From positions 8,418-72,417 of the IMG/VR virus record IMGVR_UViG_2561511128_000006: 64,000 nt of DNA; one strand, written 5' to 3'. The notes beneath the pieces are model-generated. The model had not been told where the DNA came from and ran no database searches. It saw only the letters and a list, made by a program, of their open reading frames with translations. Below are positions 6,331 to 41,356 of this stretch, one piece after another. Origin of the DNA: a virus (Duplodnaviria > Caudoviricetes). Every line of letters starts with the position of its first letter. The stretch's first letter is position 1. The translations under genes and the position numbers were made by a program.

Positions 6331-6827
6331 TGAGATACCTAGGCTGTTTTTTTGTCAAAACCCGGCGGGGCCAATCCCCGCCGGGGTGGAATTTTATCCA
6401 TGCGGAAACCCGGACGCATGGTTCGGCGCAACGCGCATTGTCGCTGCGCCTCTCATGCGGGGCGGTGAATTGTCAGAAAGTCAACTGACCGCCCGGATGT
6501 AGAAATTCGTATTTCATCACGTTTCACGGCCCGATCTTTGTGTCGTAACCGTGGGCCCTGTTGGTCGGCTCGGCCCCCGTCGCTTCGGTGCGCTTTGCGC
6601 TTCGGCCTTCTTTTCAGCCGTTTTTCCGTCCCGCCGTCCCTTTGCGGCCTGTCTTCACATCACCAGTCTCACGGGCCTCTTTCGAGCTTTCCGGGCGGCC
6701 TCTTGCTCCGCCCACCGTATCCGCTACGGCCTTCATGCCGCCCAAACCGGCTTCCTTCTCACGGGGCATTCTGGCTACTTTCCGGCTAGGTGCCTGGCGT
6801 GTTCGCCTTCCCCGTTCGTTGTGAAGA

Positions 6828-6883
6828 CAATATATACGTATGCGAATTTTACGTCAATAAAAATTTCATATATGTATATATTG
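6828..6883 (-). promoter_or_regulatory. pL-like early leftward promoter with candidate operators
   Basis: TTGACG(6857-6852)-17-TATATT(6834-6829); inverted CAATATATACRTAT sites at about 6828-6841 and 6870-6883. Confidence 0.75.
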
Positions 6884-6978
6884 AATCAAAAAATACCGCC
6901 GACACCACGAAGGCTCGGCGGTCACGCCCCATAGGGCACAAAAAAGCCCCTCACGAGGAGGGGCAAAGGGAGGCTCCG

Positions 6979-7179
6979 TTAAGGTACTAATGGATTAATA
7001 TTCATATTAGATAGTTCGGTGATATTTTTATTTGTAAAATCAACTTGTTGAATAGGGTTTGTCTTGATGCCCATATTTTTTAAAATTAACATCATTTCAT
7101 GATGATGTTTCAATGCTGGATTGTTTTCTATATTTTTAAGTAATAATGACATTTTATAATGCTTTTTGTCGATTTTCAT
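6979..7179 (-). CDS. Small AT-rich protein coupled to the SDH-type protease
   Basis: TAATG overlap with the upstream gene; same AT-rich composition. Confidence 0.55.
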   Translation of the reverse strand: MKIDKKHYKMSLLLKNIENNPALKHHHEMMLILKNMGIKTNPIQQVDFTNKNITELSNMNINPLVP

Positions 7180-8132: not shown

Positions 8133-8789
8133 CTAAACAAGCTGCCAAGTCCAAACGACTTTCCCAATAATGATGTTGTCGTATCCCTCATTAGAAACTT
8201 TCTGTGGTTTCCATCTGGGATTGTCTGAATGGAGGATAATATTACCATCCTCATCTTGCATAACTCTTTTAACAACCAAACCAAATGGGGGACGCTGTAC
8301 AAGGTAAATGCCGCCGTCCTCTAGTTCGTCGTCAAGAGGGATAACACCTACATAAGCCCCTTTTAAGATTGTAGGTTCCATACTGTCGCCAGTAACTTTA
8401 ACGGCACGAACATCGGGAAGATTATACTGAGGGAGAACAGGGATCATATTTTCTGGAGCGGTAGAAAAAAATTCAGCTGGTAGTCCGGCACCTGCTTCTT
8501 CAAAGACAGGTATCTCATGTAAGTTGTCCCCTGTTACGTTTTCAGTAGGAGAGTGACAGGCCATACGACGCATTACAGGATACCTTTCTTCATCCGGGAA
8601 AATCACCAATGCCCCCATAGCTGACAATATTTTTGATACCTTATCGAGCCCAAGTTGCTGGGCTTTGACCCCTAAAGCACGCGACAAGTTCGCCTGACTG
8701 ACGCCACATTTTTGAGCAAATGCAGCTATCTGGCGTTGATCTGAAATGTCCCTCAACCGAGCCATGAGTTTTTCTTCTAGTTCCATACG
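8133..8789 (-). CDS. cI: CI-like repressor (HTH + S24 autoproteolytic domain); exact start uncertain
   Basis: HTH GVSQANLSR; AGAG cleavage site; VTGDSMEP (Ser) and VKR (Lys); divergent from cro. Confidence 0.92.
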   Translation of the reverse strand, partial: RMELEEKLMARLRDISDQRQIAAFAQKCGVSQANLSRALGVKAQQLGLDKVSKILSAMGALVIFPDEERYPVMRRMACHSPTENVTGDNLHEIPVFEEAGAGLPAEFFSTAPENMIPVLPQYNLPDVRAVKVTGDSMEPTILKGAYVGVIPLDDELEDGGIYLVQRPPFGLVVKRVMQDEDGNIILHSDNPRWKPQKVSNEGYDNIIIGKVVWTWQLV

Positions 8790-16410: not shown

Positions 16411-16872
16411 ATGGACACCTATGCGCTCCAGCGTCAGCTTCTTCAGGCAGAACTTCCTCCAACGGAAAAGCTTGTAGGTATGGTGCTCGCCATACACATG
16501 GACAAGCGGACCGGAAAAATCCGCGTGCGGCAGGAAACCGTCGCGCAGGAGTGTGGCGTGTCTGCGCGAACAGTGCGCAGGGCCATTGCTGCGCTCGTAT
16601 CCTCCGGAGTGTTCGTCTCCGTGGCAACCGGACGCTCCTCGGTTTTGGTTGCTGGTTCTGGAAAGAGTACTGGAAGAGTGGACCGGCCACCGGTGTCCTA
16701 TCAGACCGGTCACGGGTGTCCGCAATTGAAGCGGAAAAGGGCCCCTTGGGAGTATGATTTGGCGCACAGTACGAGGCCCGAGGAAGAGGAGAAACGAGGG
16801 CATGAAAGTTTTTTGAGAGAACAGGAAGAACGCAGGCCAAACGGGGGGTGCGACGATGGCGGCACGATTTGA
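16411..16872 (+). CDS. HTH-domain protein
   Basis: RQETVAQECGVSARTVRRAIAAL. Confidence 0.7.
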   Translation: MDTYALQRQLLQAELPPTEKLVGMVLAIHMDKRTGKIRVRQETVAQECGVSARTVRRAIAALVSSGVFVSVATGRSSVLVAGSGKSTGRVDRPPVSYQTGHGCPQLKRKRAPWEYDLAHSTRPEEEEKRGHESFLREQEERRPNGGCDDGGTI

Positions 16873-17395
16873 TTGGGAATCCATCCGGGCCGAGTACGAA
16901 GTAGGGGCGAGCCAGTCCGATCTGTCCAAGCGGTACGGTGTGAGCCGGACGGCCATCCAAAAGCGCATCCGGGCCGAAGGCTGGGTGCAGGATATTTCCG
17001 GCACCGTGAACCGCATGGCAGAGGCCAAGGTTGCGGGCGTGGTTGCAGGCTGCAACCCTCAAAAAAAGGCCGAAGCCTTGGACCGCGCCGCCGAAGCCAA
17101 GGCCGCTGTCATCACCCGCCACCAGCGGGAGTGGGATCGGCATCAGTCCATTATGGATGAGGCGTTGTCCGAAGGCAGCTTCGACAAGGCCAAGCTCGCC
17201 AAGATCACCGCCGAGACGATCAAGATCCGGCAGGAGGGAGAGCGCAAGGCGTGGGGCATCGTGGACAAAGCTGCGTTGGATCATACTTCATCCGACGGTT
17301 CGCTGTCTCAGCGTCCGGTGGATCTCTCGCATCTCTCTCCGGACGAGTTGCTTCGCCTGACAAAGGAAGCCTTCAAAACGCCGGATCATGAGTAG
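16856..17395 (+). CDS. terS: Terminase small subunit
   Basis: DWESIRAEY...LSKRYGVSRTAIQKR..EGW N-terminal HTH; precedes terL. Confidence 0.85.
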   Translation: MAARFDWESIRAEYEVGASQSDLSKRYGVSRTAIQKRIRAEGWVQDISGTVNRMAEAKVAGVVAGCNPQKKAEALDRAAEAKAAVITRHQREWDRHQSIMDEALSEGSFDKAKLAKITAETIKIRQEGERKAWGIVDKAALDHTSSDGSLSQRPVDLSHLSPDELLRLTKEAFKTPDHE

Positions 17396-18851
17396 CCCAG
17401 CCATCCTTTCCGATATCCGGAAGGCGTTGGCCCGGAGCTGTCTCGCGGCCTTCGTGCGCTACACCATGCCCGGCTACCGCATGGGATGGGTGCATGAGGA
17501 AATCTGTTCCGAGCTAGACGCCTTCCTTGCCGATGTCGTAGCCGGGCGTTCCCCGCGCCTCATGCTGACCATGCCGCCCCGCCACGGGAAAAGCGAGCTC
17601 GCCTCCCGACGTTTCCCGGCTTACGCCTTGGGCCGTTATCCTGATCTATCCGTCATTTCAACGAGCTACGCCGCCGACCTGTCCTCGCGCATGAACCGCG
17701 ACGTCCAGCGTGTCATCGACAGTCCGGAATACCGGGAACTCTTTCCCGGCACGGCGCTGTACGGCAAGAACATCCGCACCGTGGGGAACGGTTCCTACCT
17801 CCGCAATTCAGATATATTCGAGGTAGTGGGGCACGCTGGATGCTACCGTTCCGCTGGCGTGGGCGGCGGCATCACGGGCATGGGCGGGCATATCGTCATC
17901 GTCGACGACCCATTCAAAGACCGGGCATCCGCCGATTCCCCGACCATCCGCCAGAACGTCTGGGACTGGTACACGTCCACGCTGTACACGCGCCTCGCGC
18001 CCGGCGGGGGGGTTCTCATTATCAATACGCGCTGGCACATGGCCGACCTTTCCGGGCGGCTGCTTGAGGCCGCCGCACGGGGGGAGGGCGACCACTGGCG
18101 TGTGGTGGACTTCCCCGCCATCGCCACGGCGGACGAGCCACATCGTAAGGCCGGGGAAGCCCTGCACCCGGAACGTTACCCGCTGAGCCAGCTCCTTGCC
18201 ATTAAGAAAGCCCTCGGCACACGCGACTGGGAGGCCCTGTACCAGCAGCGGCCTACGCCCGACGGCGGCGCCATTTTCAAATCCGAGTGGTTGCGCTTCT
18301 GGCTCCCCAAAGATCTGCCAGAGCAGTTCGACCAGCTCCTTATCTCGTGGGATATGACGTTCAAGGACGGCGACGATACCGACTTTGTTGTGGGGCAGGT
18401 GTGGGGCCGCAAGGGGGCCGACCGCTACCTCCTCGATCAGGTCCGGCGGCGCATGGGATTTACGGATACGGTCGCCGCGTTCCGGGCGCTCGCCGCTAAA
18501 TGGCCCGGCGCAGCCCGTAAGCTGGTGGAGGATAAGGCCAACGGCCCGGCGGTTATCGACGCGCTGAAACATGCTGTGCCTGGTATCATCCCCGTGGAGC
18601 CGGACGGCAGCAAGACGGCCCGGGCCCATGCCGTGACCACGTTCTTCGAGGCCGGGAACGTCCTGCTCCCGCACCCTGAGCATTGCCCGTGGGCGCGGGA
18701 GTACGTCGCGGAACTGACACAGTTCCCCGGTGCGCCCCACGACGACCAAGTGGACGCCACAACACAGGCGCTGCGTGATTTCGATACCAAGCGGCCCATG
18801 TGCATCAACCCCGCCATCCTCAATCATCCACGTATGGGAAGGAGAATATAA
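17388..18851 (+). CDS. terL: Terminase large subunit
   Basis: MPPRHGKS Walker A, VIVDDP Walker B, SWD, VEDKANG, HDDQVDA nuclease motifs. Confidence 0.95.
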   Translation: MSSPAILSDIRKALARSCLAAFVRYTMPGYRMGWVHEEICSELDAFLADVVAGRSPRLMLTMPPRHGKSELASRRFPAYALGRYPDLSVISTSYAADLSSRMNRDVQRVIDSPEYRELFPGTALYGKNIRTVGNGSYLRNSDIFEVVGHAGCYRSAGVGGGITGMGGHIVIVDDPFKDRASADSPTIRQNVWDWYTSTLYTRLAPGGGVLIINTRWHMADLSGRLLEAAARGEGDHWRVVDFPAIATADEPHRKAGEALHPERYPLSQLLAIKKALGTRDWEALYQQRPTPDGGAIFKSEWLRFWLPKDLPEQFDQLLISWDMTFKDGDDTDFVVGQVWGRKGADRYLLDQVRRRMGFTDTVAAFRALAAKWPGAARKLVEDKANGPAVIDALKHAVPGIIPVEPDGSKTARAHAVTTFFEAGNVLLPHPEHCPWAREYVAELTQFPGAPHDDQVDATTQALRDFDTKRPMCINPAILNHPRMGRRI

Positions 18852-18865
18852 ATGAATGTAAAGAG

Positions 18866-19612
18866 TTAGAGTCCTGCTTCTTGACATCTTTCCTTCACAA
18901 AAGGGTTCTCGTTACCTTGTAGTCTTTCAATACGTCTGGCCCGCGTGCATTCCCACGCATCAACCGGATACATCTTGTCCCATGCGTCCATGAGCTGCGT
19001 CTGCTGGCGGCTCATGCGGTAGCGCGGGGCATAGGCGTCGGCCATATACTTGTAGGTCCGGGCAATCTGTCCCCTCGCTCTGATAGGCGGCTCGGCCCTG
19101 CGGTCGGCGATCTTCATCCCGCAGCTTCCGAAGTCCGGCTCCTCGCCCGGCAACATCTGAAAGTTGTAGTTCTGGCGTAGGGCATTCACCGCGCCGATGG
19201 CCGGATACAGATTGTACAGGTCAGCCTGCATGAGCCTGTATTCCCGGCTGACCTTCTCGGCGCACTTGCGGCCTTTGAACGCCTTTCCCCTGTTGTCCAC
19301 GCACTGCGCGTCGCCCTCGCGCCACTCCGCGAACGCCTGCCCGAAGTTCTCGGCGGGGACCACGTGTTCCCATTCCACCTTCCCGGCCCGCTTCTCGTGC
19401 TTCGCGGCAGTAAAACCCTCCGGCAGGGTGACGTTCTTCTTCTCGTCGAACGCCGCCCCGCAGTAGAGCGTGATCCGATGGTCATAATAGACCTGCCGTT
19501 CCAGCGTCTTCTTGGCCTTGCTGAACGAATCGTTCCATTCGTTGCCCGCGGCCTGCGCCTCGGACGTCATAACCAGCGCGGCCAGCAGAAACACCATGAT
19601 GCTTTTGTACAT
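18866..19612 (-). CDS. Secreted endonuclease I (EndA/Vvn/Dns family)
   Basis: Signal peptide, TLYCG, VEWEHVVPA, DLYNLYPAIGAVN, RGQIARTYKYM, GNENPF. Confidence 0.93.
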   Translation of the reverse strand: MYKSIMVFLLAALVMTSEAQAAGNEWNDSFSKAKKTLERQVYYDHRITLYCGAAFDEKKNVTLPEGFTAAKHEKRAGKVEWEHVVPAENFGQAFAEWREGDAQCVDNRGKAFKGRKCAEKVSREYRLMQADLYNLYPAIGAVNALRQNYNFQMLPGEEPDFGSCGMKIADRRAEPPIRARGQIARTYKYMADAYAPRYRMSRQQTQLMDAWDKMYPVDAWECTRARRIERLQGNENPFVKERCQEAGL

Positions 19613-19666: not shown

Positions 19667-19696
19667 TATGAAAGGTGTCCCACAGCCAAGCCCCCC

Positions 19697-19740
19697 GAAC
19701 CTTGTTCACGGTGTGTTTTCTTTTTGGCTCGTAGCATTAT
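19697..19740 (+). promoter_or_regulatory. Late-promoter motif copy 2
   Basis: GAACCTTGTTCACGGT then CATTAT 22 nt later; upstream of the portal. Confidence 0.75.
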
Positions 19741-19746
19741 GGGCAC

Positions 19747-21933
19747 ATGAGCAAGAAGCGCACTTATCGACACGCCACCTCCATACCTCAAGTGCAACCG
19801 TCGCGCCGTCTGAATCTCTCCCCGGACGTGCGCGGCGGCCTTGCTCAGCCTTTGCCGCCTACGCCCGACGACATCAGCAGGCTGTACGGCCCAGCGAAGA
19901 CGCTCGGCGCGCCCGAAGAGGTGCAGCTTGCGATGGATGCGCGGCTTGCGGATTCCGGCGTCTATTCCCTGCTTCAACACTCGCTTGAGCTCGGATTCGG
20001 GATTGCCCCTCAATTCATGGGGTACGGCGTCCTCCAGAATCTTGCCCAGAACGGATTGATCCGTGCCTGTGTCGAGACGGTATCGGACGATATGACTCGA
20101 GCGTGGATTGAGTTCAAGCGCGAAGGGGAGGGCGGCGACGAATCATTGCTCACCGACCTTGCGCAGGCGTGCAAGAGGTTCGCACTGCAACGCCTTTTCC
20201 ATGAGGCGACCGAGCTTGTGGGGTACGAGGGCGGGGCCTTCCTTTTCATCGACACCGGAGCAGTCGGGGAAGAGCTGGAACGCCCGCTGAACGTCAGCCC
20301 GTATTCCGCCGAACTCAGGCCCGGCGGCGTGCTGCGCTTCGTCGTCATCGACCCCGTGAACGTCTTCCCCGGAGACTACAACAGCCTTTCGCCGCTTGAG
20401 CCGGACTACTTCCGCCCGCGCTGGTGGTGGGTGCTCGGGCAGCGGGTGCACGCCTCGCGCCTCATCCGATTGGTTGCGAACGAATGCCCGGTGCTGCTGC
20501 GGCCCGCCTACAATTTTTTGGGCATCCCGCAGGCGCAGATCCTCTGGGATTACGTCCTGCATTTTCAGGAATGCCGCGCCGCCGAAGCCCGGCTACTGAC
20601 CAAGTTTTCGCTGACCGTCTTCAAGACGAAGATGGAAGACATCCTGTACTCAGCCGGGGGCACCGCTCAGATCGATACCCGCATCCGGTACATGATTCAG
20701 ACCATGACCAATGACGGCGTGCTTGCCGTCGACAAAGAATCGGAAGACGTGGTCAAGCTGGAAACCCCGCTTTCAGGCGTGACCGACATCGTGCGCCAGT
20801 CCCTTGAAATCCTCGCCGCCCTGAACCGCACTCCGGCGGTCAAGCTGCTTGGCATCAGCCCGTCAGGGTTCAATGCCACGGGCGAATCGGACATCCGCAA
20901 CTACTACGACCATATTACGAGCCAGCAGGAGAAAGTCCTGCGCGACGGCATCAAGAAGGCGCTCGACTGTATCCAGCTCTACCTGCGCGGAACCATCGAC
21001 CCTTCCGTGACTTTTGACTTCGCGCCCCTCGGCGAAGAGGATAGGGCGGCCCTTGCGACGCTCCAGAAGACCAAGGCCGACACCATCGCCGTCTACATGG
21101 ATCGGGACATCATCTCTCAGGAAGAAGCCCGGCAATCCCTTGCCAGTGACCCGGACAGCGGCTTCTCCGACATCGACCCGGCGGAAGTGCCGCAGGGCAA
21201 TGGAATGCCTGATGCCCTGCCGGAAGCCGGGGAAGAGGGCTTGATGCCCGACATCGACGATGTGGACAAGGCCGGGGCCGTCTACGACGCCGCGTGGGAC
21301 GAGGATGTCTGGCGTACCGCCGAGAACGGCAAACGGTATCAGATCGACACTGAAACCGGAGAGATCAAGAAGGGGAACGTGGGGCAGAAGTCATGGAATT
21401 CCGAACAAAAGCAGCACGAACGCAGGGATCGTATGGAAGATGCTCTGCGGGAAATAGCCAATGGGCGTCCGGAATCAACGATACCGCATCTCCGAAAGGA
21501 TCTTGAACGCTATGGGGGCACAAACGACGTCACTATTGTCAAGGGAGATGCAAGGAAAGGTCTTGTCCATATTGCTGACCGACATGGACACGCGGCTGTT
21601 GCCCATGTGCTGGAAGCTGTCGCCAACGGGGAAATAGATAGGTTCGTTCCGGGAAAGCAGACTGTACATATCCGCAAAGACGGCTATGAGGCCGTGCTCT
21701 CTCTTGAGGAGAACGGTAGGAAAAAAACATGGTTATTGACTGGATTTGATCTTCCCGGAGCGGGACAAAAAAAGAGGCCCACGGGTGACAGCGGCAAGGT
21801 TTGTACAAGACACGCTTCTACGCAGGCCGGGCCTATTCTTAGTCGTCCCGACATGGGAGCCGTAAGCCTCTTTAAAGACAGGATACTCCATCTCATGGAG
21901 CAAGTAAAGCCGGTGGAGATCCCGCGTGGCTAA
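19747..21933 (+). CDS. Portal protein (DUF1073-type) with C-terminal PBECR-like nuclease extension
   Basis: Position after terL, DUF1073-like core (G.SP.GFNATGESD..NYYD); extra ~215 aa with KGLVHIADRH and KTWLLTGFD. Confidence 0.88.
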   Translation: MSKKRTYRHATSIPQVQPSRRLNLSPDVRGGLAQPLPPTPDDISRLYGPAKTLGAPEEVQLAMDARLADSGVYSLLQHSLELGFGIAPQFMGYGVLQNLAQNGLIRACVETVSDDMTRAWIEFKREGEGGDESLLTDLAQACKRFALQRLFHEATELVGYEGGAFLFIDTGAVGEELERPLNVSPYSAELRPGGVLRFVVIDPVNVFPGDYNSLSPLEPDYFRPRWWWVLGQRVHASRLIRLVANECPVLLRPAYNFLGIPQAQILWDYVLHFQECRAAEARLLTKFSLTVFKTKMEDILYSAGGTAQIDTRIRYMIQTMTNDGVLAVDKESEDVVKLETPLSGVTDIVRQSLEILAALNRTPAVKLLGISPSGFNATGESDIRNYYDHITSQQEKVLRDGIKKALDCIQLYLRGTIDPSVTFDFAPLGEEDRAALATLQKTKADTIAVYMDRDIISQEEARQSLASDPDSGFSDIDPAEVPQGNGMPDALPEAGEEGLMPDIDDVDKAGAVYDAAWDEDVWRTAENGKRYQIDTETGEIKKGNVGQKSWNSEQKQHERRDRMEDALREIANGRPESTIPHLRKDLERYGGTNDVTIVKGDARKGLVHIADRHGHAAVAHVLEAVANGEIDRFVPGKQTVHIRKDGYEAVLSLEENGRKKTWLLTGFDLPGAGQKKRPTGDSGKVCTRHASTQAGPILSRPDMGAVSLFKDRILHLMEQVKPVEIPRG

Positions 21934-22708
21934 AACCCTTCGAGCCATCAAGCCCAACGCGGGCATCCGGGCGAAATACCGCAAACGGCTGGTGTCCCTC
22001 CTCGACGAAATGCAGCGTTCCGTCGTGTGGTGGATACGCGCTGAGTATCGGCAGCAGGAAACTCGGATAGCACAAGATGCATCCCCGGCGAGTGACCTGC
22101 AAAACCGCCTCAAGCGCCTGTTCCGGTACTGGACGAAGCGGTGGAGGGAAAGCGCGGAGAGTTTTGCACGGGAGTTCGTGGGCAGTACGAGGCGGCGCAC
22201 GGAAGCCAGCATGAGGCAGGCCCTCAAAGATGCGGGCTTCACGGTGAGGATGGAGGGAAGCAGGGCCATGAGCGACGTGGCGCGGGCCCTCTTCGAGGAA
22301 AATGTCAATCTCATCAAATCCATTCCGCAGCACTATTTCACGGAAGTGACGGGGCTAGTACAGCGTTCCGCCAGCATGGGCCGGGACGTGGAGTTCCTCG
22401 CCGACGAACTGCACAAGCGGTACGAGATCACCCGGCGCCGGGCAGAATTCATTGCCCGCGACCAGTCCAATAAGGCGACCGAGGCCCTTAAGCGGGTACA
22501 GGACAAGGAACTCGGCATCACCGAAGGCATCTGGGTACATGTGCCGGGAAAGAAAACGAGCCGCCATACCCACCAGCTCATGAATGGGAAAAAGTTCGTC
22601 ATCACGGAAGGTCTTTACGACTCTGACGTGAAGCGCAAAGTGCTTTGCGGTGAGCTTCCGGGGTGCCAATGCACGTACCGGGCCGTTATTCCTGAATTTG
22701 GAGACTAG
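21926..22708 (+). CDS. MuF/SPP1 gp7-like head morphogenesis protein
   Basis: RAEFIARDQSNK, W.H...R..H, PGCQC motifs. Confidence 0.88.
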   Translation: MAKTLRAIKPNAGIRAKYRKRLVSLLDEMQRSVVWWIRAEYRQQETRIAQDASPASDLQNRLKRLFRYWTKRWRESAESFAREFVGSTRRRTEASMRQALKDAGFTVRMEGSRAMSDVARALFEENVNLIKSIPQHYFTEVTGLVQRSASMGRDVEFLADELHKRYEITRRRAEFIARDQSNKATEALKRVQDKELGITEGIWVHVPGKKTSRHTHQLMNGKKFVITEGLYDSDVKRKVLCGELPGCQCTYRAVIPEFGD

Positions 22709-24424
<1,716 letters not shown>

Positions 24425-26097: not shown

Positions 26098-26118
26098 TCC
26101 CATCCTTCCCTCCATGCG

Positions 26119-26158
26119 AAAGCCCCAACCGCCTGTTTAACGGTTGGGGCTTCTTTGC
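26119..26158 (+). terminator. Rho-independent terminator after the MCP
   Basis: GCCCCAACCG/CGGTTGGGGC stem + TTCTTT. Confidence 0.75.
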
Positions 26159-26314
26159 ATCTTTGGGCTCTGCTCAGTAATGATAACTTCTGTCCTCTAC
26201 ATGCAAAAAGTAAGCAGAAATGCGCCTCGGTGTTCTGATAGTCGTTCTTTGACAAGGGAATAGGGAAAGGATAGAAAACCGCTGTGGGGCACTCTCCTGA
26301 AAGGAGGGTACTCC

Positions 26315-26401
26315 ATGCGACACTTCCTCCGGGACGTCGCTGTCCAAGTGATTGGCGGCGTCATTGTGGCTGTGGTGATTCGGTTCATGCTGAACCAATA
26401 A
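26315..26401 (+). CDS. Candidate type I TA toxin peptide (28 aa, MRHFLRDVAVQVIGGVIVAVVIRFMLNQ)
   Basis: AAAGGAGGG RBS able to pair with upstream CTCCT; single TM; structured 3' UTR. Confidence 0.75.
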   Translation: MRHFLRDVAVQVIGGVIVAVVIRFMLNQ

Positions 26402-26479
26402 CGCAGTTGCCCCGGTAGGAGGTGCGAACTCCAACCGGGGCGCAAACTTGAGATGATCAATCTCGGGAGGGTGTCCCAC

Positions 26480-26520
26480 GGGGCGGCAGGTGTGTCACCA
26501 CTTGCCGCCCTTCCTTTTTT
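26480..26520 (+). terminator. Terminator of the candidate toxin mRNA
   Basis: GGGCGGCAGG/ACTTGCCGCCC stem + TTCCTTTTTT. Confidence 0.7.
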
Positions 26521-26551
26521 CAATAGCCATTCCCGTGCTCGGGGTCAAGGG

Positions 26552-27478
26552 CTATCCTAGCATCAACCTGTTCGCGGTCTTCGCGGCACGGATGGCCGCT
26601 CTCATTTCCGAGATTCCCGCGTCAATCCACGTCTGGGCGTTGTACGAGTTGGACTGTAGGATGCCGAGAAGCGGATCCTTCGAGATGTTCTGCTGGGAAC
26701 ATACCCGGTTCAGCAGTTCGGGATAAGTGCTCTCCTTGACGCGCAAGAGCTCGTTGACGAATCGGTGGAGCCGGGAGCGGGTTTCCCCCGCGAATTCGAT
26801 CCATTCCTCTTCGAGGCGGTCGAGGGCCGCGATGCGGGCGGCGTAGACGCTGGAGGCGGGAAGCGCAGGGTACGGAATCGCGGATTCCGCCGTGGGTATG
26901 GCATTGATGGCGCGGACACGGACGGAAAGCAGGAACTCGCGGGCCTCGGGCATAAGCCGGGCCGGGAGCTGACTGTATTCCGCGATGCGGAAGTGGCGGT
27001 TGTGCTTCGCCCATATCTCGGCGCGGGCCTTGCCCTGCACGGCGGCGGGGTATGTCGAGAGCTTGGCGTCTACGATGAGCTTGAGCTCGGCACGTTCCGC
27101 CGCACTGATCAGCTCGTCGTTGAGCGTCACAGGCTGTTCAACGGGCACCCTGTCGCCGTACTGCTCGATGACGTCCAGCACCCACTTGCGGAATGCCTTT
27201 GCTACCGGAGTCCGGGCGAACATGGCGAGGAGGTGGCAGCCGCGAAGTGAGAAGATGCGGGCGCGACCCTCAGCCCCGTTTTGGGGCTGTGCGGTAATTT
27301 CAACTAGTTGCGTCATGTCTGGCGTGAATTCATCGGCGTTATTTCGGTAAAGACGCGAAACTTGATTTTCGCGTCCATACCCAAGAGCTCGTGCGAGTTC
27401 TGTAGCGCGAATCCAAGGCTGATTGCCGCGAGTTATGGGGGAGAAAGTGAAATCGTTGAAGCAAAGAGAATGAGACAT
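26552..27478 (-). CDS. BRO-N-domain antirepressor (copy A)
   Basis: ELARALGY...RIFSLRGCHLLAMFARTPVAKAFRKWVLDV; AGGAG RBS before MSHSLCF. Confidence 0.88.
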   Translation of the reverse strand: MSHSLCFNDFTFSPITRGNQPWIRATELARALGYGRENQVSRLYRNNADEFTPDMTQLVEITAQPQNGAEGRARIFSLRGCHLLAMFARTPVAKAFRKWVLDVIEQYGDRVPVEQPVTLNDELISAAERAELKLIVDAKLSTYPAAVQGKARAEIWAKHNRHFRIAEYSQLPARLMPEAREFLLSVRVRAINAIPTAESAIPYPALPASSVYAARIAALDRLEEEWIEFAGETRSRLHRFVNELLRVKESTYPELLNRVCSQQNISKDPLLGILQSNSYNAQTWIDAGISEMRAAIRAAKTANRLMLG

Positions 27479-27521
27479 AACCAACTCCTACTGTTAAGAG
27501 TTGGCATCGCCGATGAATGAC

Positions 27522-27603
27522 GATGCCGGGTGTTCATCACCGCCAGTAGGAGCGGCTCCCTGCCTTTAGCTTACGCTTGGACATATCAGGGACACCCGGC
27601 ATC
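27522..27603 (-). ncRNA. C4-like antisense RNA (copy A), about 82 nt
   Basis: 12-bp closing stem GATGCCGGGTGT/ACACCCGGCATC; loop CCTACTG and segment GTGATGAAC complementary to flanking targets. Confidence 0.72.
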
Positions 27604-27835
27604 AGGAAGATGCAAGTATAGCAGAAAACCAAAGTCAAAAAGAGTCTTGACTTCGGCAAAAGGGCACAAAAAGAGCCATACTATCGGGTGGCGTTGTCCG
27701 CCTACTGTTGGTGTGATGAGCACCGTAGAAAAAAGACAGCACAAAACGCGAAAAATGTAAAGAGAAAAGCAGTGGCGTTGCCCGCATCTGGATGTTCTTC
27801 ATCTGCATTGGCGGACAACGCCACGTTGGAAAGTT

Positions 27836-28906
27836 TTACTTGTTATCGTATTTCAAGGCCGTAGCCCGGATTCGATCCGCAAAGGGGATAATATCTTCCA
27901 GTTTTTCGATGTCTTCCTTTGCGTCCTTATTCTCCCCATCAAACAGTCCGACCCTCCACTGTTTTCCGTTGAAATACAGGCGGCACAGAGGCTTGAGCCT
28001 GTTGTCGTCAAGAAGGATGGAGCAGTAGCTGATGCTGTCCCGCATGGCTACGCGCCCCGGATCAACGGTGCCCATCAGAAGCGATTTGACAAGGTAATAC
28101 GCCTCTTTTTCTTCCTCGGTGGTGACTATACGCGAATCCTGCTCTTTTCCTTGTGGGGTATCTTCGGACTCTATCTCTACAATTTCCGGTTTCTGCTGCG
28201 TCATGGCATTTTTCAATCGGTCGTTGATGCGGTCGTTGATGAACTGGTCAAGCGCAGCGGTAAGGATTGGAGTGAAGCGATCCAGAACGTTTTGCGTGAT
28301 ACGCCCATCATACGTCTGTCCGATGAAAAAGCGTGCGAAATCTTCGTGGGGCGTTTCCATTTGTTCGGACATGAGGCGTTTGAACTCTCGGTTGTACTTG
28401 AGTTCGTTTGCCGCGCTCATGCAGGCATCCCGATCAAACTTGCCTTTTGCCAACTTGCGCAGTTCCGGGAGCAACATTTCATCCATATCGTCAAGGACGA
28501 ACTCCATATAGGGCTTGCTGTCCATTTTGTTGGCTGTTTCAAGATCGGAATAGAACCGGTAACGGTTGCCGTCCGTCAGGATGGCAATGGGGGCTTCCGT
28601 CCCGTGGAAGTAAAGCTGTAGCTGGTTGCAGTGCTTCATGTCGAGAGACGTGCCCAAAGCCTTGCACTCCAGAAGAAGGATAGGCTTGCCGTCCACAAGA
28701 ATCGCATAGTCCACGCGGGCGTCCTTATATTCGCCGATGGGGGCTGAAAATTCGGGCACGACTTCCGCAGGGTTGAAAACGTCGTATCCCAGGGCCGCGA
28801 TGAAAGGCATCACCAAGGCGTTTTTCGTGGCCTCTTCGGTCTTGAGGCTATCTCCCAGATTCTTTACCTTTTTCGACAATTCAGCAATTCTTTCCGAAAA
28901 ATCCAT
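27836..28906 (-). CDS. HsdR N-terminal-like PD-(D/E)XK nuclease-domain protein
   Basis: EEATKNAL..PF..ALGYDVFNP.EV.PE, RVDYAI, LLECK, ILTDG; no helicase motifs. Confidence 0.85.
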   Translation of the reverse strand: MDFSERIAELSKKVKNLGDSLKTEEATKNALVMPFIAALGYDVFNPAEVVPEFSAPIGEYKDARVDYAILVDGKPILLLECKALGTSLDMKHCNQLQLYFHGTEAPIAILTDGNRYRFYSDLETANKMDSKPYMEFVLDDMDEMLLPELRKLAKGKFDRDACMSAANELKYNREFKRLMSEQMETPHEDFARFFIGQTYDGRITQNVLDRFTPILTAALDQFINDRINDRLKNAMTQQKPEIVEIESEDTPQGKEQDSRIVTTEEEKEAYYLVKSLLMGTVDPGRVAMRDSISYCSILLDDNRLKPLCRLYFNGKQWRVGLFDGENKDAKEDIEKLEDIIPFADRIRATALKYDNK

Positions 28907-28938
28907 TGCACTCCCCCTTAAAAAATCATGTATTGAGG

Positions 28939-29931
28939 TTATTTCTGTAACTCTTTTAGATAATTGGGAACATATTCATGGACAGACTCTTTTCCGGGAA
29001 TTTTCATTGAGATCATATCCCCTTTTTGTCCTTTTCCATAAGCGCGGGCCGTAACAATTTTTACGGCTCCATTCGCATCAAAAAAGTTTTCCAACGCACG
29101 GATACCCGAATTTGAAATTCTGCGGGTATCCATTTCGTTAAGAGGACTGGGGAAAACCAAAGCTATTGCGCACCAATTCTTTGAATTTTTTTCAAAAACC
29201 AGTTTATAGCCCCCAAGTTTGGAGTACGTAGGTAAGGATTTCTTTATGAAAGTCTCAATGTCTTTCTGCGTCCATGTATAATTGTATTCGGGGGCCTTTG
29301 GTCGGCACTCTTCGTGCCCAATGCGCCAGAAGGTATCGGCTTGCTCCCAGTCTTTGACTGTTTTAATTTTTTCACAGTCAGGGCTTAAGTTTTTTGCTCT
29401 ATTTGTGGAATTGGTATTTTGGGGCGCGATTCCTTCTGGGTGCCTTGAGTTGAGCCATGCCCCTGCAACTACCAAGCAAACGAATAGAACCAGTAATTTT
29501 TTTGCTTTGCTTGGCTTTTTTTTGTTTTGCTGTGCAAATGGGGTTGGTTTTCCACGCTCTTGGGCCAATTGTTCATCAAAAAGGTGTGCGCGGATAACCT
29601 CCATCATGGGGCTATTCACCTTTGCCAATGCCTTATTTCCATTTTTGAACTCAATAATGACGGTAGACTCAGTCGTCTTGCCTCCAGCTACCGCACCCGC
29701 AACCGCTCCGATGCCTCCAAGCAAGACGCCGCCGACAAGTGCGCCTCCCAAAGTTCCGCCGAGCTTTTTGACCGATTCTTCATTGGCTACTTCGCAAGAG
29801 GCAATACTGGAAAGAAAAAGTTCCTTTGCTCCAAACATTTTTGAAGAGCAACGCAACTGGTTTTTATTTTTAATGTAAATATATTCTTCTTTCCCGTAGT
29901 CCCCTGCCAGAAATTTGATGTAGGTAGCCAT
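28939..29931 (-). CDS. AT-rich membrane-anchored accessory protein
   Basis: Gly-rich GGALVGG segment, central TM after a basic patch, periplasmic-type C-terminus. Confidence 0.75.
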   Translation of the reverse strand: MATYIKFLAGDYGKEEYIYIKNKNQLRCSSKMFGAKELFLSSIASCEVANEESVKKLGGTLGGALVGGVLLGGIGAVAGAVAGGKTTESTVIIEFKNGNKALAKVNSPMMEVIRAHLFDEQLAQERGKPTPFAQQNKKKPSKAKKLLVLFVCLVVAGAWLNSRHPEGIAPQNTNSTNRAKNLSPDCEKIKTVKDWEQADTFWRIGHEECRPKAPEYNYTWTQKDIETFIKKSLPTYSKLGGYKLVFEKNSKNWCAIALVFPSPLNEMDTRRISNSGIRALENFFDANGAVKIVTARAYGKGQKGDMISMKIPGKESVHEYVPNYLKELQK

Positions 29932-30005
29932 ACATCATCCCCCTTATTATAGATGAGGCTATCATGGCATAGGCCGTTCCAAAAATCCACCGCCGCCGCC
30001 CTCCG

Positions 30006-30027
30006 CCCCGAAAGGGGCTTTTCCTTT
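30006..30027 (+). terminator. Hairpin terminator
   Basis: GCCCC-GAAA-GGGGC-TTTTCCTTT. Confidence 0.65.
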
Positions 30028-30035
30028 GCCTGTAC

Positions 30036-30080
30036 GAACCTTGTTCACGGTATCTGCCCCGTTGTCCTGCGGGCTATCCT
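30036..30080 (+). promoter_or_regulatory. Late-promoter motif copy 3
   Basis: GAACCTTGTTCACGGT then TATCCT 23 nt later. Confidence 0.72.
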
Positions 30081-30118
30081 TTTTCAATGTGCTGTATTGG
30101 CACGTAAGGAGGTAGCGC

Positions 30119-30391
30119 ATGAACGCAATGGAACTGAAAAGGGGATTTCATCTTGCGGTTGAAGATTCCCGCATCATCCCCACCGGGAACGGGGTGTTTA
30201 TCGAATATGACGGTTTCTTGAGCAAAAAGATGGAGGGGCTGAGGGCACTCCTCATTCAATGTTACCCCGACGCGGCAACACGTTTTCCAGAAGCGTTTGC
30301 ACATCGCTATTCTCAGGATGAAATTGCAGAGCATAGTCGTCGGTTACGCGAGCAACGAACAGAAAAGACAGGTTTCCGAGAACCCTGCTGA
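30119..30391 (+). CDS. Hypothetical protein
   Basis: AAGGAGG RBS directly after motif copy 3. Confidence 0.6.
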   Translation: MNAMELKRGFHLAVEDSRIIPTGNGVFIEYDGFLSKKMEGLRALLIQCYPDAATRFPEAFAHRYSQDEIAEHSRRLREQRTEKTGFREPC

Positions 30392-30545
30392 GGTCGCTCT
30401 GGATCTGCTGTGCATGAGGCCCGGAGAGGAGCAGAAATAAGCCGGGGCGGATCGGAATATACCCGGCTCCATACATGCGGTTGAGCTCCTCCCTTTCATT
30501 GGAGGCTTCGCCGGGCTGTTTTTCATAAGCTACAAGATAGGACAT
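30252..30545 (-). CDS. Small protein, possible ferredoxin-like (Cas2/VapD-type) fold
   Basis: GGGAGGGG RBS; MSYLVAYE N-terminal strand; overlaps the opposite-strand ORF. Confidence 0.5.
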   Translation of the reverse strand: MSYLVAYEKQPGEASNEREELNRMYGAGYIPIRPGLFLLLSGPHAQQIQSDLSRVLGNLSFLFVARVTDDYALQFHPENSDVQTLLENVLPRRGNIE

Positions 30546-30635
30546 ATTCCCCTCCCTGTTTTTCCCAAACCGGCACACAATGGAGGGGATGTCAAGAATG
30601 ATTTCAGGGCATCATCCTGAAAAAGGAAGGTCCGC

Positions 30636-30833
30636 ATGTACGTTGAAAATACCAATTATTGGGTTGAGGTTGTGTTGCGGCAGTTAAAGGGGTTTGTCCC
30701 CAAGGGCGAGCCTGTCCATTTTCACATTTGTTTTTCCATGGTGGGGGGGGAACCCACGATAGATTTCACGGCTGTTCAGGTTTTTGATGAGGAAGATCAA
30801 CTACAACCTCAAACCGAACCCGCGATGTGCTAG
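30636..30833 (+). CDS. Hypothetical protein
   Basis: AAGGAAGG RBS. Confidence 0.45.
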   Translation: MYVENTNYWVEVVLRQLKGFVPKGEPVHFHICFSMVGGEPTIDFTAVQVFDEEDQLQPQTEPAMC

Positions 30834-31131
30834 AATCGGATGTTTCCCGGTGCCCATCCGCCTTCAGACTCGCGGCAATCACGGCCACGCCAAAACCGCC
30901 TCCAGCCTTGCCAGACTTGCTGGCCGTAATGGCAATATCAAAAGCCACGGTCTGCAATTGGGTTTGGGAATGAAACGCTTCGGGGTTCTTGATCCGTTCA
31001 GGGCCATTTTCTTTAGCATGGTAGTACGGATTAATGAGCGCCCCAGAGCCCCGCAACCGCGTCTGCGCGCCGTGGATGCCCTCGGCAATCTGGCACAGCG
31101 TTTCTTCTACAAAGCTCTTCAAGTCCATCAT
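30766..31131 (-). CDS. Trypco2-like small beta-rich protein
   Basis: MDLKSFVEETL...VAFDIAITA...GGGFGV...SRVRFEV pattern. Confidence 0.6.
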   Translation of the reverse strand: MMDLKSFVEETLCQIAEGIHGAQTRLRGSGALINPYYHAKENGPERIKNPEAFHSQTQLQTVAFDIAITASKSGKAGGGFGVAVIAASLKADGHRETSDSSTSRVRFEVVVDLPHQKPEQP

Positions 31132-31211
31132 TATGGCGGCTCCTTGCTTTCCGAGTAGGACGCCATAACGCATGTCCCATGTCAAGCGCCAGAGGTGAGA
31201 GAGCTTTTCCC

Positions 31212-31255
31212 GAACCTTGTTCACGGTGTGCCCCCACGCCGCCATGCGGCATCAT
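31212..31255 (+). promoter_or_regulatory. Late-promoter motif copy 4
   Basis: GAACCTTGTTCACGGT then CATCAT 22 nt later. Confidence 0.75.
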
Positions 31256-31281
31256 CTCCAAAACACTATGGAGGTGCAGCG

Positions 31282-32070
31282 ATGGAAAATTCCCCCCTGG
31301 CTCTTTTTGAACATGAAAAATTCGGTTCCCTTCGCGTCGTCAGAAGTGATCAGGGGGCCCAGTGGTTCGTGGCGAAAGACGTGTGCGGGTGTCTCGGGCT
31401 GGATACCAGTAACCTTTCAAAAATGTTGGATGAAGACGAGCTTTCGACCTACCCCGTACAGTATACGGATCAGGTCAGGAATCTTTCCGTCGTATCCGAA
31501 CCGGGCCTGTATTCCCTCATCCTGCGTTCCCGCAAGCCCGAAGCCAAGGCGTTCAAGCGGTGGGTGACGCATGAGGTCATCCCCTCCATCCGCAAGACGG
31601 GCGGCTACCTGATAGCCAAGCCGGACGATACCCCCGAAGCCATCCTTGCCCGCGCCGTGCTGGTCGCGCAGGACACCATCAGGCGCATCGAAGCCGAGCG
31701 CGACGAGGCAATCCGCACCAAGGCCGAAATTGGTTCACGCCGCGAGGCCACCGCAATGGCAACCGCCTCCGCAGCCGTACGCAAGGCTGCGGCTCTTGAG
31801 AACGAACTTGGGCGGGGCAGGGACTACAAGTCCGTGAAGGGCATCCCGTGGTTCCTTGACGTCTTCGCAGATACGCCAGCCGCGTACTCCGTCGCAGGAC
31901 GCAAGCTTTCCGATATGTCCCGCCGTATGGATTACGAAATCCGGGAAATCGAGGACAGCCGTTTCGGGAGCGTGAAGGCGTACCACGTCGACGTGATCGA
32001 AGCCTTCCGGCTGGCCCTGAAAAACGACCTGAACATGCTGGGCAAGTACCGCCTTCGCCGTGCCGCATAG
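31282..32070 (+). CDS. BRO-N antirepressor-like protein (second family in prophage 1)
   Basis: FGSLRVV..WFVAKDVC..LG, SEPGLYSLILRSRKPEAKAFKRWVTHEVIPSIRKTGGY. Confidence 0.92.
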   Translation: MENSPLALFEHEKFGSLRVVRSDQGAQWFVAKDVCGCLGLDTSNLSKMLDEDELSTYPVQYTDQVRNLSVVSEPGLYSLILRSRKPEAKAFKRWVTHEVIPSIRKTGGYLIAKPDDTPEAILARAVLVAQDTIRRIEAERDEAIRTKAEIGSRREATAMATASAAVRKAAALENELGRGRDYKSVKGIPWFLDVFADTPAAYSVAGRKLSDMSRRMDYEIREIEDSRFGSVKAYHVDVIEAFRLALKNDLNMLGKYRLRRAA

Positions 32071-32072
32071 CC

Positions 32073-32116
32073 GAACTTTGTTCACGGTGATTTCGTCCCG
32101 GCTCTTTTGCCATGAT
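32073..32116 (+). promoter_or_regulatory. Late-promoter motif copy 5
   Basis: GAACTTTGTTCACGGT then CATGAT 22 nt later; re-starts the neck/tail operon. Confidence 0.75.
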
Positions 32117-32144
32117 GACCAAAACAACGGAGGGATACAGAGAT

Positions 32145-32558
32145 ATGGCCAGACCCAAAAAGAATACCGCCCCGGAAACAACGCAGGCGACGAAGACGGA
32201 TACCGTGATGGTCGCCTTGAACCGGACGACCGGGATCACGTTCCCCATGCCCGACGGACGCAAGGTGCTCATCGAAGGCAACGCCGCCAGCCTGCGCGGA
32301 AAGGAAAAGGGCGTGCTGCCCGTGGGCGCGTTTGGGCTGACGCGGGTGAACGCCGACGATTGGGCATACATTGAAAAGACCTATGGTCCGCACATGGAAA
32401 TCTTCAAGTCCGGGCTCATCTTCGCGCAGGCGCGCAAGGCCGACGCCGTGGACGAGGCCGACGAAAGGGCGGAACTGCGCAACGGGCTGGAGCCCGTGGA
32501 TGTGGAGAACGACCCCAAGGCGCAGACCGAACCGCTCCAGAGCAAGGCGGGGTTCTAA
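32145..32558 (+). CDS. Virion structural/assembly protein
   Basis: GGAGGG RBS; first gene of the neck/tail operon. Confidence 0.7.
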   Translation: MARPKKNTAPETTQATKTDTVMVALNRTTGITFPMPDGRKVLIEGNAASLRGKEKGVLPVGAFGLTRVNADDWAYIEKTYGPHMEIFKSGLIFAQARKADAVDEADERAELRNGLEPVDVENDPKAQTEPLQSKAGF

Positions 32559-39436: not shown

Positions 39437-39735
39437 TGACCGTACCGCTCCGGCATGAGCCGAACCAGAGCCTCCAGATTGTGCTTGGGGAACAGAACTG
39501 CACCCTCCGGTTTATCTCCCGAGGCGTGAACCTGTACTGCGACCTTGCCATTGACCAGACGGTCATCTGGTCTGGGTTCATCTGCCGTAACCTCGTCGGC
39601 TTGAAGCTGTACGACTATCTCGCCTTCCGGGGGCAGCTCTACTTTGTCGATATGCAAAAGGAAGAGGATCCGCACTGGTCGGGCCTCGGCGACCGATTCC
39701 AGCTCGTTTATGTCGAAGAAGGGGAAACGCTGTGA
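39433..39735 (+). CDS. Small baseplate protein
   Basis: PNQSLQIVL...C.L pattern; synteny. Confidence 0.72.
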   Translation: MMTVPLRHEPNQSLQIVLGEQNCTLRFISRGVNLYCDLAIDQTVIWSGFICRNLVGLKLYDYLAFRGQLYFVDMQKEEDPHWSGLGDRFQLVYVEEGETL

Positions 39736-40634
39736 ACACGAGCTTCACCAAAAAGCTGCTTGAAGCGCACATCACGCTCGCCGAGGGCGGCTTCAACACG
39801 GCTACCGGGCAAGGTGCGAATACCAAGATCATCCGGCTCGGAATGGATGTGGACATACAGAAGCCCGGCGGGAAAGAGAAGAACAAGGCCAAAGTCCGTA
39901 TCTTCAACCTGCCCCTTGCCGATATGGAGACGCTGACGACGCTGGCGTTCAAGCCGTTGCAGGCGTCGAAAAACCGCATTGCCGTGTACGCGGGCGATGA
40001 AGAGCACGGGATGTCTCTTGCGTTCTCCGGCGATATCGTGAGCGCCGTTCCGAACTTCAATTCCGCCCCTGATCCCTCTTTCGATATTGAGTGCATCACG
40101 GGATACGTCGCCAGCATCACGCCCGTGCCGCCGTTGACGGCGCAGGGTGCGCAGGACGTTGCCACGCTCATGCAGGGGCTCGCGAAGCAAATGGGGCTCG
40201 CTTTCGTCAACAGGGGCGTGTCCGTTTCCCTTCGCAATGTCGCCCTCGTCGGGGGTCCGATGGAGCAGGCGCAGCAGCTTGCCCACGATGCCCGCATCGA
40301 TCTTATCGTGGACGATGGCGAGATGGTCATCTCCCCTCTTGCGACGCTTCGCAGCGATGACGGCGGCTCGACTCCCGTCTGGTCCGCGAAAAGTGGCATG
40401 ATTGGCTATCCGAGCTTCGACAACGAAGGCGTGACGGTGAAAGGCATCTACGAGTCGAAGCTCCAGCTTGGCGGCCCGGTGCGCATTGAGAGCATCGTCC
40501 CCCGAGCTTCCGGCCTCTGGCAGATCGTGAGCCTGAGCCACAAATTGCAGGCCGGCTACCCCGGCGCAACGCAGTGGGTAAGCCAGATCAAGGCAAGCTA
40601 TCCCGGCGCGAAGCCGAAGAAGGACAAGAAATAA
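39732..40634 (+). CDS. Baseplate hub protein
   Basis: VRIFNL, AFSGDI, SGMIGYP motifs. Confidence 0.8.
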   Translation: MNTSFTKKLLEAHITLAEGGFNTATGQGANTKIIRLGMDVDIQKPGGKEKNKAKVRIFNLPLADMETLTTLAFKPLQASKNRIAVYAGDEEHGMSLAFSGDIVSAVPNFNSAPDPSFDIECITGYVASITPVPPLTAQGAQDVATLMQGLAKQMGLAFVNRGVSVSLRNVALVGGPMEQAQQLAHDARIDLIVDDGEMVISPLATLRSDDGGSTPVWSAKSGMIGYPSFDNEGVTVKGIYESKLQLGGPVRIESIVPRASGLWQIVSLSHKLQAGYPGATQWVSQIKASYPGAKPKKDKK

Positions 40635-41356
40635 TGCAGGGACAACGCGGCCTCTCGACAAATTCCAGCGAGTACAACGCGCAGGACTTCATGATCAGCC
40701 AGATGCTCGGGCGCATCGCAACGGCGGAACCCGTGCGCGTGGTCGCCGTATCCGGTCCGGGTGTCTCTCCGGTAGGCTTCGTCGACGTGCAACCCCTCGT
40801 CAACTTGGTGACGGGCGAACAGAAGGCGCAGGAGCAGAGCGTGCTCTTCAAGCTCCCGTACTTGCGTATCCAGGGCGGGAAAAACGCTCTCGTCATCGAC
40901 CCGCAGCCGGGCGACATCGGCCTCGCCGTCTACGCCATGCGTGACACGGAATCGCTCAAAGAGAGCCGGGGAGTGGATGGGACCGTCAATCCGGGGTCAG
41001 CCCGCGCCATGAACAAAGGCGACGGCTTCTATCTCGGAGGCTTCTTAAACGCCGCGCCGGAACGCTATGTGCTGGTCAACGACGAGGGCGTCACCATCGA
41101 AGGAGTGGCCAAACTGACGATGCACGGGGAAACTTCCGTCCTGACGGCGGAAAATGGCCTCACCATCAACGCCGACGTGCGCATCAACGGATCCTTGACG
41201 TGGACGGGCACGGCGCAGGGTGATGGCGGCCCGGCCCGGTTCTCCGGCGGACTCACGAACGCGGGAGGGACGGTTGAGAGCAACGGTAAGGTCTTGGAAA
41301 ACCATGTTCATACCGGGGTCGAGCCCGGTTCCGGCATATCCGGACAACCACAGTAA
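40634..41356 (+). CDS. Baseplate spike (Gp138/gpV-like)
   Basis: VDVQPL, PGDIGL, C-terminal HVHTGV metal-binding tip. Confidence 0.87.
   Translation: MQGQRGLSTNSSEYNAQDFMISQMLGRIATAEPVRVVAVSGPGVSPVGFVDVQPLVNLVTGEQKAQEQSVLFKLPYLRIQGGKNALVIDPQPGDIGLAVYAMRDTESLKESRGVDGTVNPGSARAMNKGDGFYLGGFLNAAPERYVLVNDEGVTIEGVAKLTMHGETSVLTAENGLTINADVRINGSLTWTGTAQGDGGPARFSGGLTNAGGTVESNGKVLENHVHTGVEPGSGISGQPQ

Follow-up and report, generated by a model that had tools for sequence, protein, structure and literature searches.

Why does the portal gene of a tailed phage run on for 215 codons beyond its portal domain, and what might the additional protein do? We addressed this question in a 64,000-nucleotide stretch of a virus assigned to Caudoviricetes (Duplodnaviria; IMG/VR record IMGVR_UViG_2561511128_000006, positions 8,418 to 72,417), hereafter the window. 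A plus-strand gene at 19747–21933 encodes a 728-amino-acid (aa) portal protein with C-terminal cargo, as read from the open reading frame (ORF) list and translation. We consider it likely that the last 181 aa of this protein are exchangeable cargo of the PBECR1 family, RNase-like, which would be freed from the portal and injected to act early in infection. The portal assignment is based on a match to PF06381 (Phage_portal_3, formerly DUF1073) at aa 96–448 (20032–21090, plus strand; E = 1.4e-80, Pfam) that spans the portal model over its full length, a match to the portal family phrog_146 (E = 1e-98, PHROGs) and the position of the gene between the large terminase gene (TerL, 17388–18851, upstream) and a gene for a MuF-family minor head protein (21926–22708, plus strand; PF04233, phrog_324). 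The translation reads from the portal core into an acidic, Pro/Gly-rich linker (aa 470–513; 21154–21285, plus strand), past which the frame stays open for 215 aa (21286–21930). The initial annotation had described this in-frame continuation and quoted strings from it, and both the ORF and the strings (DAAWDEDVWRTAENGKR, KGLVHIADRH and KKTWLLTGFD) are present. It had also stated that no immunity gene follows, which holds: the MuF gene starts with a GTG at 21926 that overlaps the portal stop codon (21931–21933), leaving no room for an ORF 3′ of the portal, and neither the ORF list nor the sequence at the overlap contains one between the two genes.

Direct searches with the C-terminal 215 aa returned no usable match in Pfam (E ≤ 1), NCBIfam, PHROGs or PDB sequences, with only noise-level hits to phrog_15582 (E = 0.04) and an epimerase (E = 0.54). 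A phmmer search against 1.84 billion representatives recovered 235 homologues, of which 146 have E ≤ 1e-10. Many of these sit in proteins of 1000–5750 aa; three of the four giants that were scanned contain ART-PolyVal and/or LPD3, which are hallmarks of polyvalent proteins (PMC5512222), and in all four no Pfam model covers the segment that is homologous to the window. Among shorter homologues, PBECR1 (PF18809) matches 24 of 69 at E ≤ 0.1 (best 3.3e-13), and the match falls over the stretch aligned to the window; P0184 is the only one of ten homologues scanned singly to exceed the PF18809 gathering score of 27.6 bits.

To compare the families as profiles, 108 family cores (aa 573–670) were aligned by hhalign with four PBECR1 domains that score above the Pfam threshold. 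The two profiles match with a probability of 97.4% (E = 1.4e-11) over 78 columns, and the alignment pairs G-L-x-H-I-x-x-R with G-x-x-H-I-I-E-R and W-L-L-T-G with W-M-V-T-A. Controls gave 0.5% for LPD3 and at most 0.9% for ten column-shuffled PBECR1 alignments, and the MuF_C domain of P0024, used as a single sequence, gave 0.2%, which is no signal for that branch of PBECR domains. Two residues stand out in the alignment. His608 (codon 21568–21570, plus strand, checked against the sequence) lies in the pre-helix, is the predicted catalytic histidine, is His in 63 of 68 homologues and aligns with the PBECR1 histidine of G-x-x-H-I; Thr665 (codon 21739–21741, plus strand, likewise checked) lies in the last strand within W-L-L-T-G and, with 51 Thr and 12 Ser among 67 homologues, aligns with the PBECR1 threonine of W-x-V-T. 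The G-L-HI--RH and W-LT-F patterns from which the initial annotation had argued for a PBECR domain do mark this conserved His and Thr. The window copy also retains the near-invariant G600, G605, H608, I609, G628, L651, L653, W662 (68 of 68) and G666, as well as R612, where 62 of 69 homologues have Arg or Lys. Both residues of the His/Thr configuration, which defines five of six PBECR families (PMC5512222), are accordingly found in the family.

A structural model points in the same direction. The AlphaFold2 model, built with a 69-sequence alignment, has a mean predicted local distance difference test (pLDDT) score of 83.7, rising to ~96 over domain residues 40–155 (residue 1 being aa 514). Three short strands within residues 8–30 are followed by a long helix (40–58; aa 553–571) that precedes the core, short strands at 63–66 and 82–85, a helix at 92–100 bearing His95 (H608), a helix at 102–114 and strands at 116–121, 126–131, 134–142 and 145–155, the last bearing Thr152 (T665). 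The colicin-like layout of the BECR (barnase/ColE5/RelE-like) fold consists of a pre-helix, a helix and β1–4, to which PBECR domains add leading strands (bioRxiv 10.64898/2026.08.28.747851), and the model shows this order of extra strands, pre-helix, helix and four strands. A Foldseek search of the PDB ranked the Serratia marcescens BWH57 CdiA-CT first (7m5f_C, E = 7.9e-4), ahead of RelE, HigB, YoeB, ParE and RegB. An independent VIA-align scan of 48,161 chains placed BECR or RelE/ParE-fold toxins in all of its best 15 positions, with Z scores of 5.8 for two CdiA-CT chains (7m5f_C and 5i4q_A), 5.1 for BrnT, 5.0 for RelE and 4.1 for colicin D; because Z values below 8 may reflect a generic common arrangement, the fold call rests on the model and the profile match combined. 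Matches in BFVD were uncultured-phage polyvalent, 'nuclease' and MuF-C proteins. The BECR-type fold first proposed from sequence motifs is thus borne out by the hhalign probability, the confident core of the model and the predominance of BECR RNase toxins among its structural matches. On this combination of profile and predicted structure, the core of the cassette (aa 573–670; 21463–21756, plus strand) is a divergent PBECR1-type BECR domain without a Pfam match of its own; members of the PBECR1 family are predicted to be metal-independent endoRNases of phage polyvalent proteins.

Comparison with related portals indicates where the cargo begins and ends. Four portals (P0027, P0028, P0029 and P0030) are 94–96% identical to the window portal over aa 1–500 and 96–100% identical over 48 aa that include a junction motif, W-x-T-x-x-N-G ... 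G-E-I-x-K-G-N-V-G-Q (aa 514–547; 21286–21387, plus strand), and have no similarity to it beyond. Past the junction, P0027 (scanned) and P0029 (precomputed Pfam match) carry LPD3, P0028 carries a canonical PBECR1 domain, and P0030, which at 551 aa is possibly truncated, carries nothing; more distant portals have LPD13 or NUDIX as C-terminal cargo. The initial annotation had proposed comparing close relatives for variable C-termini, and such variation is what we found. It had, however, drawn the domain from 21286 to 21933; cargo is present there, but the first 34 aa (21286–21387) belong to the shared junction and the exchangeable cassette proper begins at 21388 (aa 548–728, 181 aa; 21388–21930, plus strand).

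The same limits are visible in DNA. Over 19696–21387, the window is 90.7% identical to an uncultured Bilophila sp. prophage (locus L003) with an LPD3-type portal that shares 96% identity with P0027; homology stops at the last junction codon (Gln547), is absent from 21388 to 21926 and resumes at 21927, at the start of the MuF gene, which forms the 3′ boundary of the cassette. Base composition changes at the same places: the cassette has 52.6% GC and 50% third-position GC (GC3), the portal core 61.6% and 77%, and the junction a GC3 of 83%. The drop in GC3 suggests that the cassette was acquired recently from DNA of lower GC content. The domain is therefore exchangeable cargo with sharp DNA boundaries at 21387/21388 and at the MuF start, and the locus displays one property of polymorphic toxins, a variable C-terminal domain exchanged by recombination on a conserved carrier. 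The junction, which is predicted to fold as a three-strand β-meander (strands at domain residues 8–11, 17–20 and 27–30; AlphaFold), is the 5′ recombination boundary and is common to sister portals with other cargo. In a search of 50,697 phage records by tblastn, only portal cores were matched, with coverage to aa 529 at most, and the cassette was found in no isolated phage. The Bilophila locus (MGYG-HGUT-01277) differs from the window in two further respects: an additional ORF of 128 aa (6723–7109) lies between its portal and MuF genes and may be a partner of LPD3, and a deletion has removed most of MuF and of the protease-scaffold gene (window 22079–24240).

Beyond the BECR core, the cassette ends in a short tail motif, T-Q-x-x-P-[TI]-[FL]-S-R-x-x-[LM]-G-A (aa 692–705; 21820–21861, plus strand), ~35 residues past the last strand, in a region predicted to be disordered (pLDDT 51–55). 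Its proline is conserved in 45 of 49 sequences and its arginine in 43 of 48, and the motif occurs once per protein, directly after the domain, in 93 of 184 fetched proteins, giant polyvalent proteins included. It was not found in P0028, the one canonical-PBECR1 portal examined. Many stand-alone and polyvalent homologues (P0048, P0053, P0089, P0104, P0137, P0167 and others) share a further short motif shortly before the domain, H-P-R-D-x-x-G-[KR]-F followed by a Gly-rich stretch, and homologues often show a looser version of the junction (W-I-T-[IV]-N-G-x-H-I); judged from their sequences, both look like generic module prefixes.

Might the fusion simply be an artefact in which two genes were joined by a frameshift or by the loss of a stop codon? 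The cassette does contain two A7 homopolymer runs (21713–21719 and 21764–21770), which are potential slippage sites, and the frame is intact across them. Against such an origin, an independent 52.8-kb IMG/VR contig is identical, except for one substitution, over 1001 nucleotides covering the linker, domain and MuF start; nine additional protein clusters, found in other metagenomes, also combine portal and domain, at 58–87% identity in the domain; and in-frame protein homology continues unbroken across both A7 runs up to the tail motif. We regard an artefactual fusion as extremely improbable, and an assembly error, which the initial annotation had named as a possible source of the reading frame, is ruled out by the independent contig and was dropped.

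The cassette also occurs in other virion genes. In five proteins (P0007–P0010 and P0017; 54–67% identity), it is inserted together with the junction just after a DUF2213 domain, and the junction motif likewise precedes the cassette in stand-alone genes as well as in these protease-scaffold fusions. A syntenic prophage in another genome of the same family (G058:C20, locus L011) has a 577-aa portal without cargo and a DUF2213 protein that carries LPD3. Here, a stand-alone gene of 252 aa (16520–17278 of that locus), composed of the junction and a PBECR1-like domain 69% identical to the window cassette, is wedged between an E217-gp41-like baseplate hub and a spike with a GpV apex motif; the spike gene begins 5 nucleotides downstream, with no ORF between. 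In the window, the corresponding hub (39735–40604) and spike (40646–41350) genes are adjacent. This placement recalls the effector genes found beside spike genes in contractile injection systems. The family as a whole recurs in large multidomain proteins, in simple fusions to the portal and to DUF2213 proteins and in the context of virion genes, which is the distribution of a polyvalent effector.

The barrel and crown end of a portal faces the capsid interior. The portal core of the window is homologous to the solved portals of Pseudomonas phages E217 and Pa193 (gp19 in both; E ~1e-33), with query residues 89–495 aligned to residues 107–507 of the Pa193 chain. The Pa193 model stops where the C-terminal barrel does, at residue 528, and density is missing for residues 529–765 (PMC11456595). 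As the junction begins right after the barrel by alignment, the 12 cargo copies would be located within the head, over the portal channel.

Downstream of MuF, a gene at 22712–24424 (plus strand; PF09979) encodes a prohead protease-scaffold fusion with a DUF2213 N-domain and an acidic, coiled C-terminal region. PHROGs labels DUF2213 protein families 'head maturation protease', and the N-domain is homologous to that of Pa193 gp24; the latter is published only as a 'putative scaffolding protein'. The AlphaFold model of the window N-domain (22712–23290, pLDDT 88.3) matches herpesvirus assemblin (1o6e_B, E = 3e-4, probability 1.0; Foldseek) and the T4 gp21 prohead protease, and H83, S135 and H165 are invariant in 54 sequences. 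A Ser-His-His set of this kind is used by assemblins. Given the assemblin-like fold and the invariant Ser and His residues, a prohead protease should be available in the procapsid; it is a candidate processing enzyme that may cut the portal linker, junction or tail. A related observation is that phrog_30637, a profile of 1119 positions, matches both the window portal (profile 2–301) and the DUF2213 protein (profile 736–915) and therefore indicates that phages with a single fused portal-to-protease polyprotein exist.

From these elements we infer the following course of events. Each procapsid would incorporate twelve copies of the cargo, directed towards the capsid interior, where the neighbouring assemblin-type prohead protease, or some other event, would free the domain. 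The freed domain could then leave with the DNA and, early in infection, cleave RNA that belongs to the host or is related to defence. An immunity gene would be superfluous if expression is confined to late times, when the cell is already committed to lysis. A more far-reaching version treats the junction β-meander and cassette as a position-independent cargo system, usable on the portal, within the protease-scaffold protein or beside the spike, with the junction and perhaps the tail acting as signals for packaging or for processing by the assemblin-type protease, and with the free RNase injected against RNA-based defence; we put this forward tentatively, as a possibility with the odds against it.

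Several points weigh against an injected RNase. The window protein does not reach the gathering score of PF18809 and has no PBECR match even at E ≤ 1; structural Z scores are modest, with a maximum of 5.8; position 638 is Gln where the consensus is Lys (49 of 69 homologues); and this reading does not account for the conserved tail motif. The portal remains in the capsid at DNA ejection, and delivery of the cargo consequently requires cleavage, for which there is no known site. To our knowledge, no PBECR domain has been biochemically characterised or shown to be an RNase. In the literature, too, RNase activity of PBECR domains is predicted, and the PBECR-type copy in the MuF-C of phage Mu was judged inactive and possibly RNA-binding (PMC5512222).

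The last of these points, the Lys-to-Gln change and the retention of portals at ejection would equally suit a nucleic-acid-binding or structural module that stays on the portal inside the capsid, for instance by gripping the DNA end that is packaged last, or by helping with retention or release, and Pbunavirus portals too have a C-terminal region, of ~237 aa, that is invisible in the virion. We nevertheless think such a role unlikely: it leaves unexplained why the domain is swapped freely with LPD3, LPD13, NUDIX and canonical PBECR1, on portals as similar as 94–96%, and why the same cassette recurs within scaffold and giant polyvalent proteins and next to the spike, and over 90% of homologues retain His and Thr/Ser of the catalytic type. 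Less probable still is an interbacterial toxin of the MuF type, released with or on virions at lysis, with a lysogen immunity protein encoded elsewhere. The conserved N-terminal carrier with its variable C-terminal domain does resemble polymorphic toxins, the best structural matches are toxins of CDI (contact-dependent growth inhibition), and the LPD3 cassette of the sister Bilophila locus brings an extra 128-aa ORF before MuF. However, no cognate immunity gene lies immediately downstream either in the window or after the stand-alone copy, the family resides mostly within polyvalent proteins, which are without immunity partners, and the portal C-terminus faces the capsid interior and not the outside. 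The absence of an immunity ORF fits late-made, carried-over polyvalent effectors (PMC5512222), not a self-protected interbacterial toxin. An exchangeable, injected PBECR1-family effector remains the reading that we consider likely.

Fusions of PBECR domains to portal and MuF proteins, with predicted injection, have been described computationally by Iyer, Burroughs, Anand, de Souza and Aravind in 2017, who found PBECR domains in up to 26% of polyvalent proteins (PMC5512222), and the window protein is therefore a divergent example and not a new system. What is added to that account is a large PBECR1-related subfamily that Pfam misses and that has a tail motif of its own, together with base-exact cassette boundaries, a junction motif and three virion positions for one cassette; the word 'linker' is absent from the text of PMC5512222. 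The window protein shares with PBECR1 (PF18809) fusions the BECR topology, the His of the N-terminal helix, the Thr of the last strand, a PF06381 portal as fusion partner, a virion-gene context, the lack of an immunity partner and a presence in giant polyvalent proteins with ART-PolyVal and LPD3, and differs from them in being too divergent for the Pfam model and in having an extra N-terminal long helix and a tail of ~14 aa. MuF polymorphic toxins (Jamet et al. 2017, PMC5576092) are similar in that a head protein of the packaging module carries a C-terminal effector exchanged by recombination in prophages; unlike them, the carrier here is the portal, present in 12 copies, MuF is short and cargo-free, and no small ORF follows downstream. 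The resemblance to CdiA-CT (7m5f chain C and 5i4q chain A), BrnT, RelE and colicin D extends over 68–88 aligned residues at Z scores of 4.1–5.8, but identity is 6–18%, and these proteins belong to CDI, toxin–antitoxin or colicin delivery systems with a cognate immunity protein or antitoxin. The gp19 portals of Pa193 and E217 (9B41 and 8FVH) have a homologous core, a syntenic myovirus structural module and a long, unseen C-terminal extension, whereas phage-collection records match the window portal only to aa 529 and never its cargo.

Effectors that are prepacked in the capsid and act before phage gene expression are well predicted and barely tested, and PBECR domains rank among the commonest of those predicted. 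The locus offers a compact test case, with one small domain, a 12-copy carrier, candidate catalytic residues H608 and T665 and an exact cassette boundary; near-isogenic natural portals with other cargo are possible controls, and an identifiable prohead protease adjoins. That Pfam models miss a PBECR1-related subfamily of 235 representative clusters also matters for the annotation of gut prophages.

The window lies in a 4.63-Mb bacterial genome of 198 contigs, in which the cassette domain is present as a single copy. Named relatives of neighbouring genes come from Desulfovibrio and Mailhella; from these and the sister locus in Bilophila sp., the host is probably a member of Desulfovibrionaceae. 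Between the terminase and portal genes, an inserted antisense gene (18866–19612, minus strand) encodes an Endonuclease_1 protein (PF04231, E = 1.7e-29) with a signal-peptide-like N-terminus. Relative to the syntenic prophage of genome G058, the window also contains an insertion of ~6 kb (26100–32150) between the major capsid gene and the neck and tail genes, with lower GC (down to 47%) and ORFs mostly on the minus strand, which is probably a cargo or moron island.

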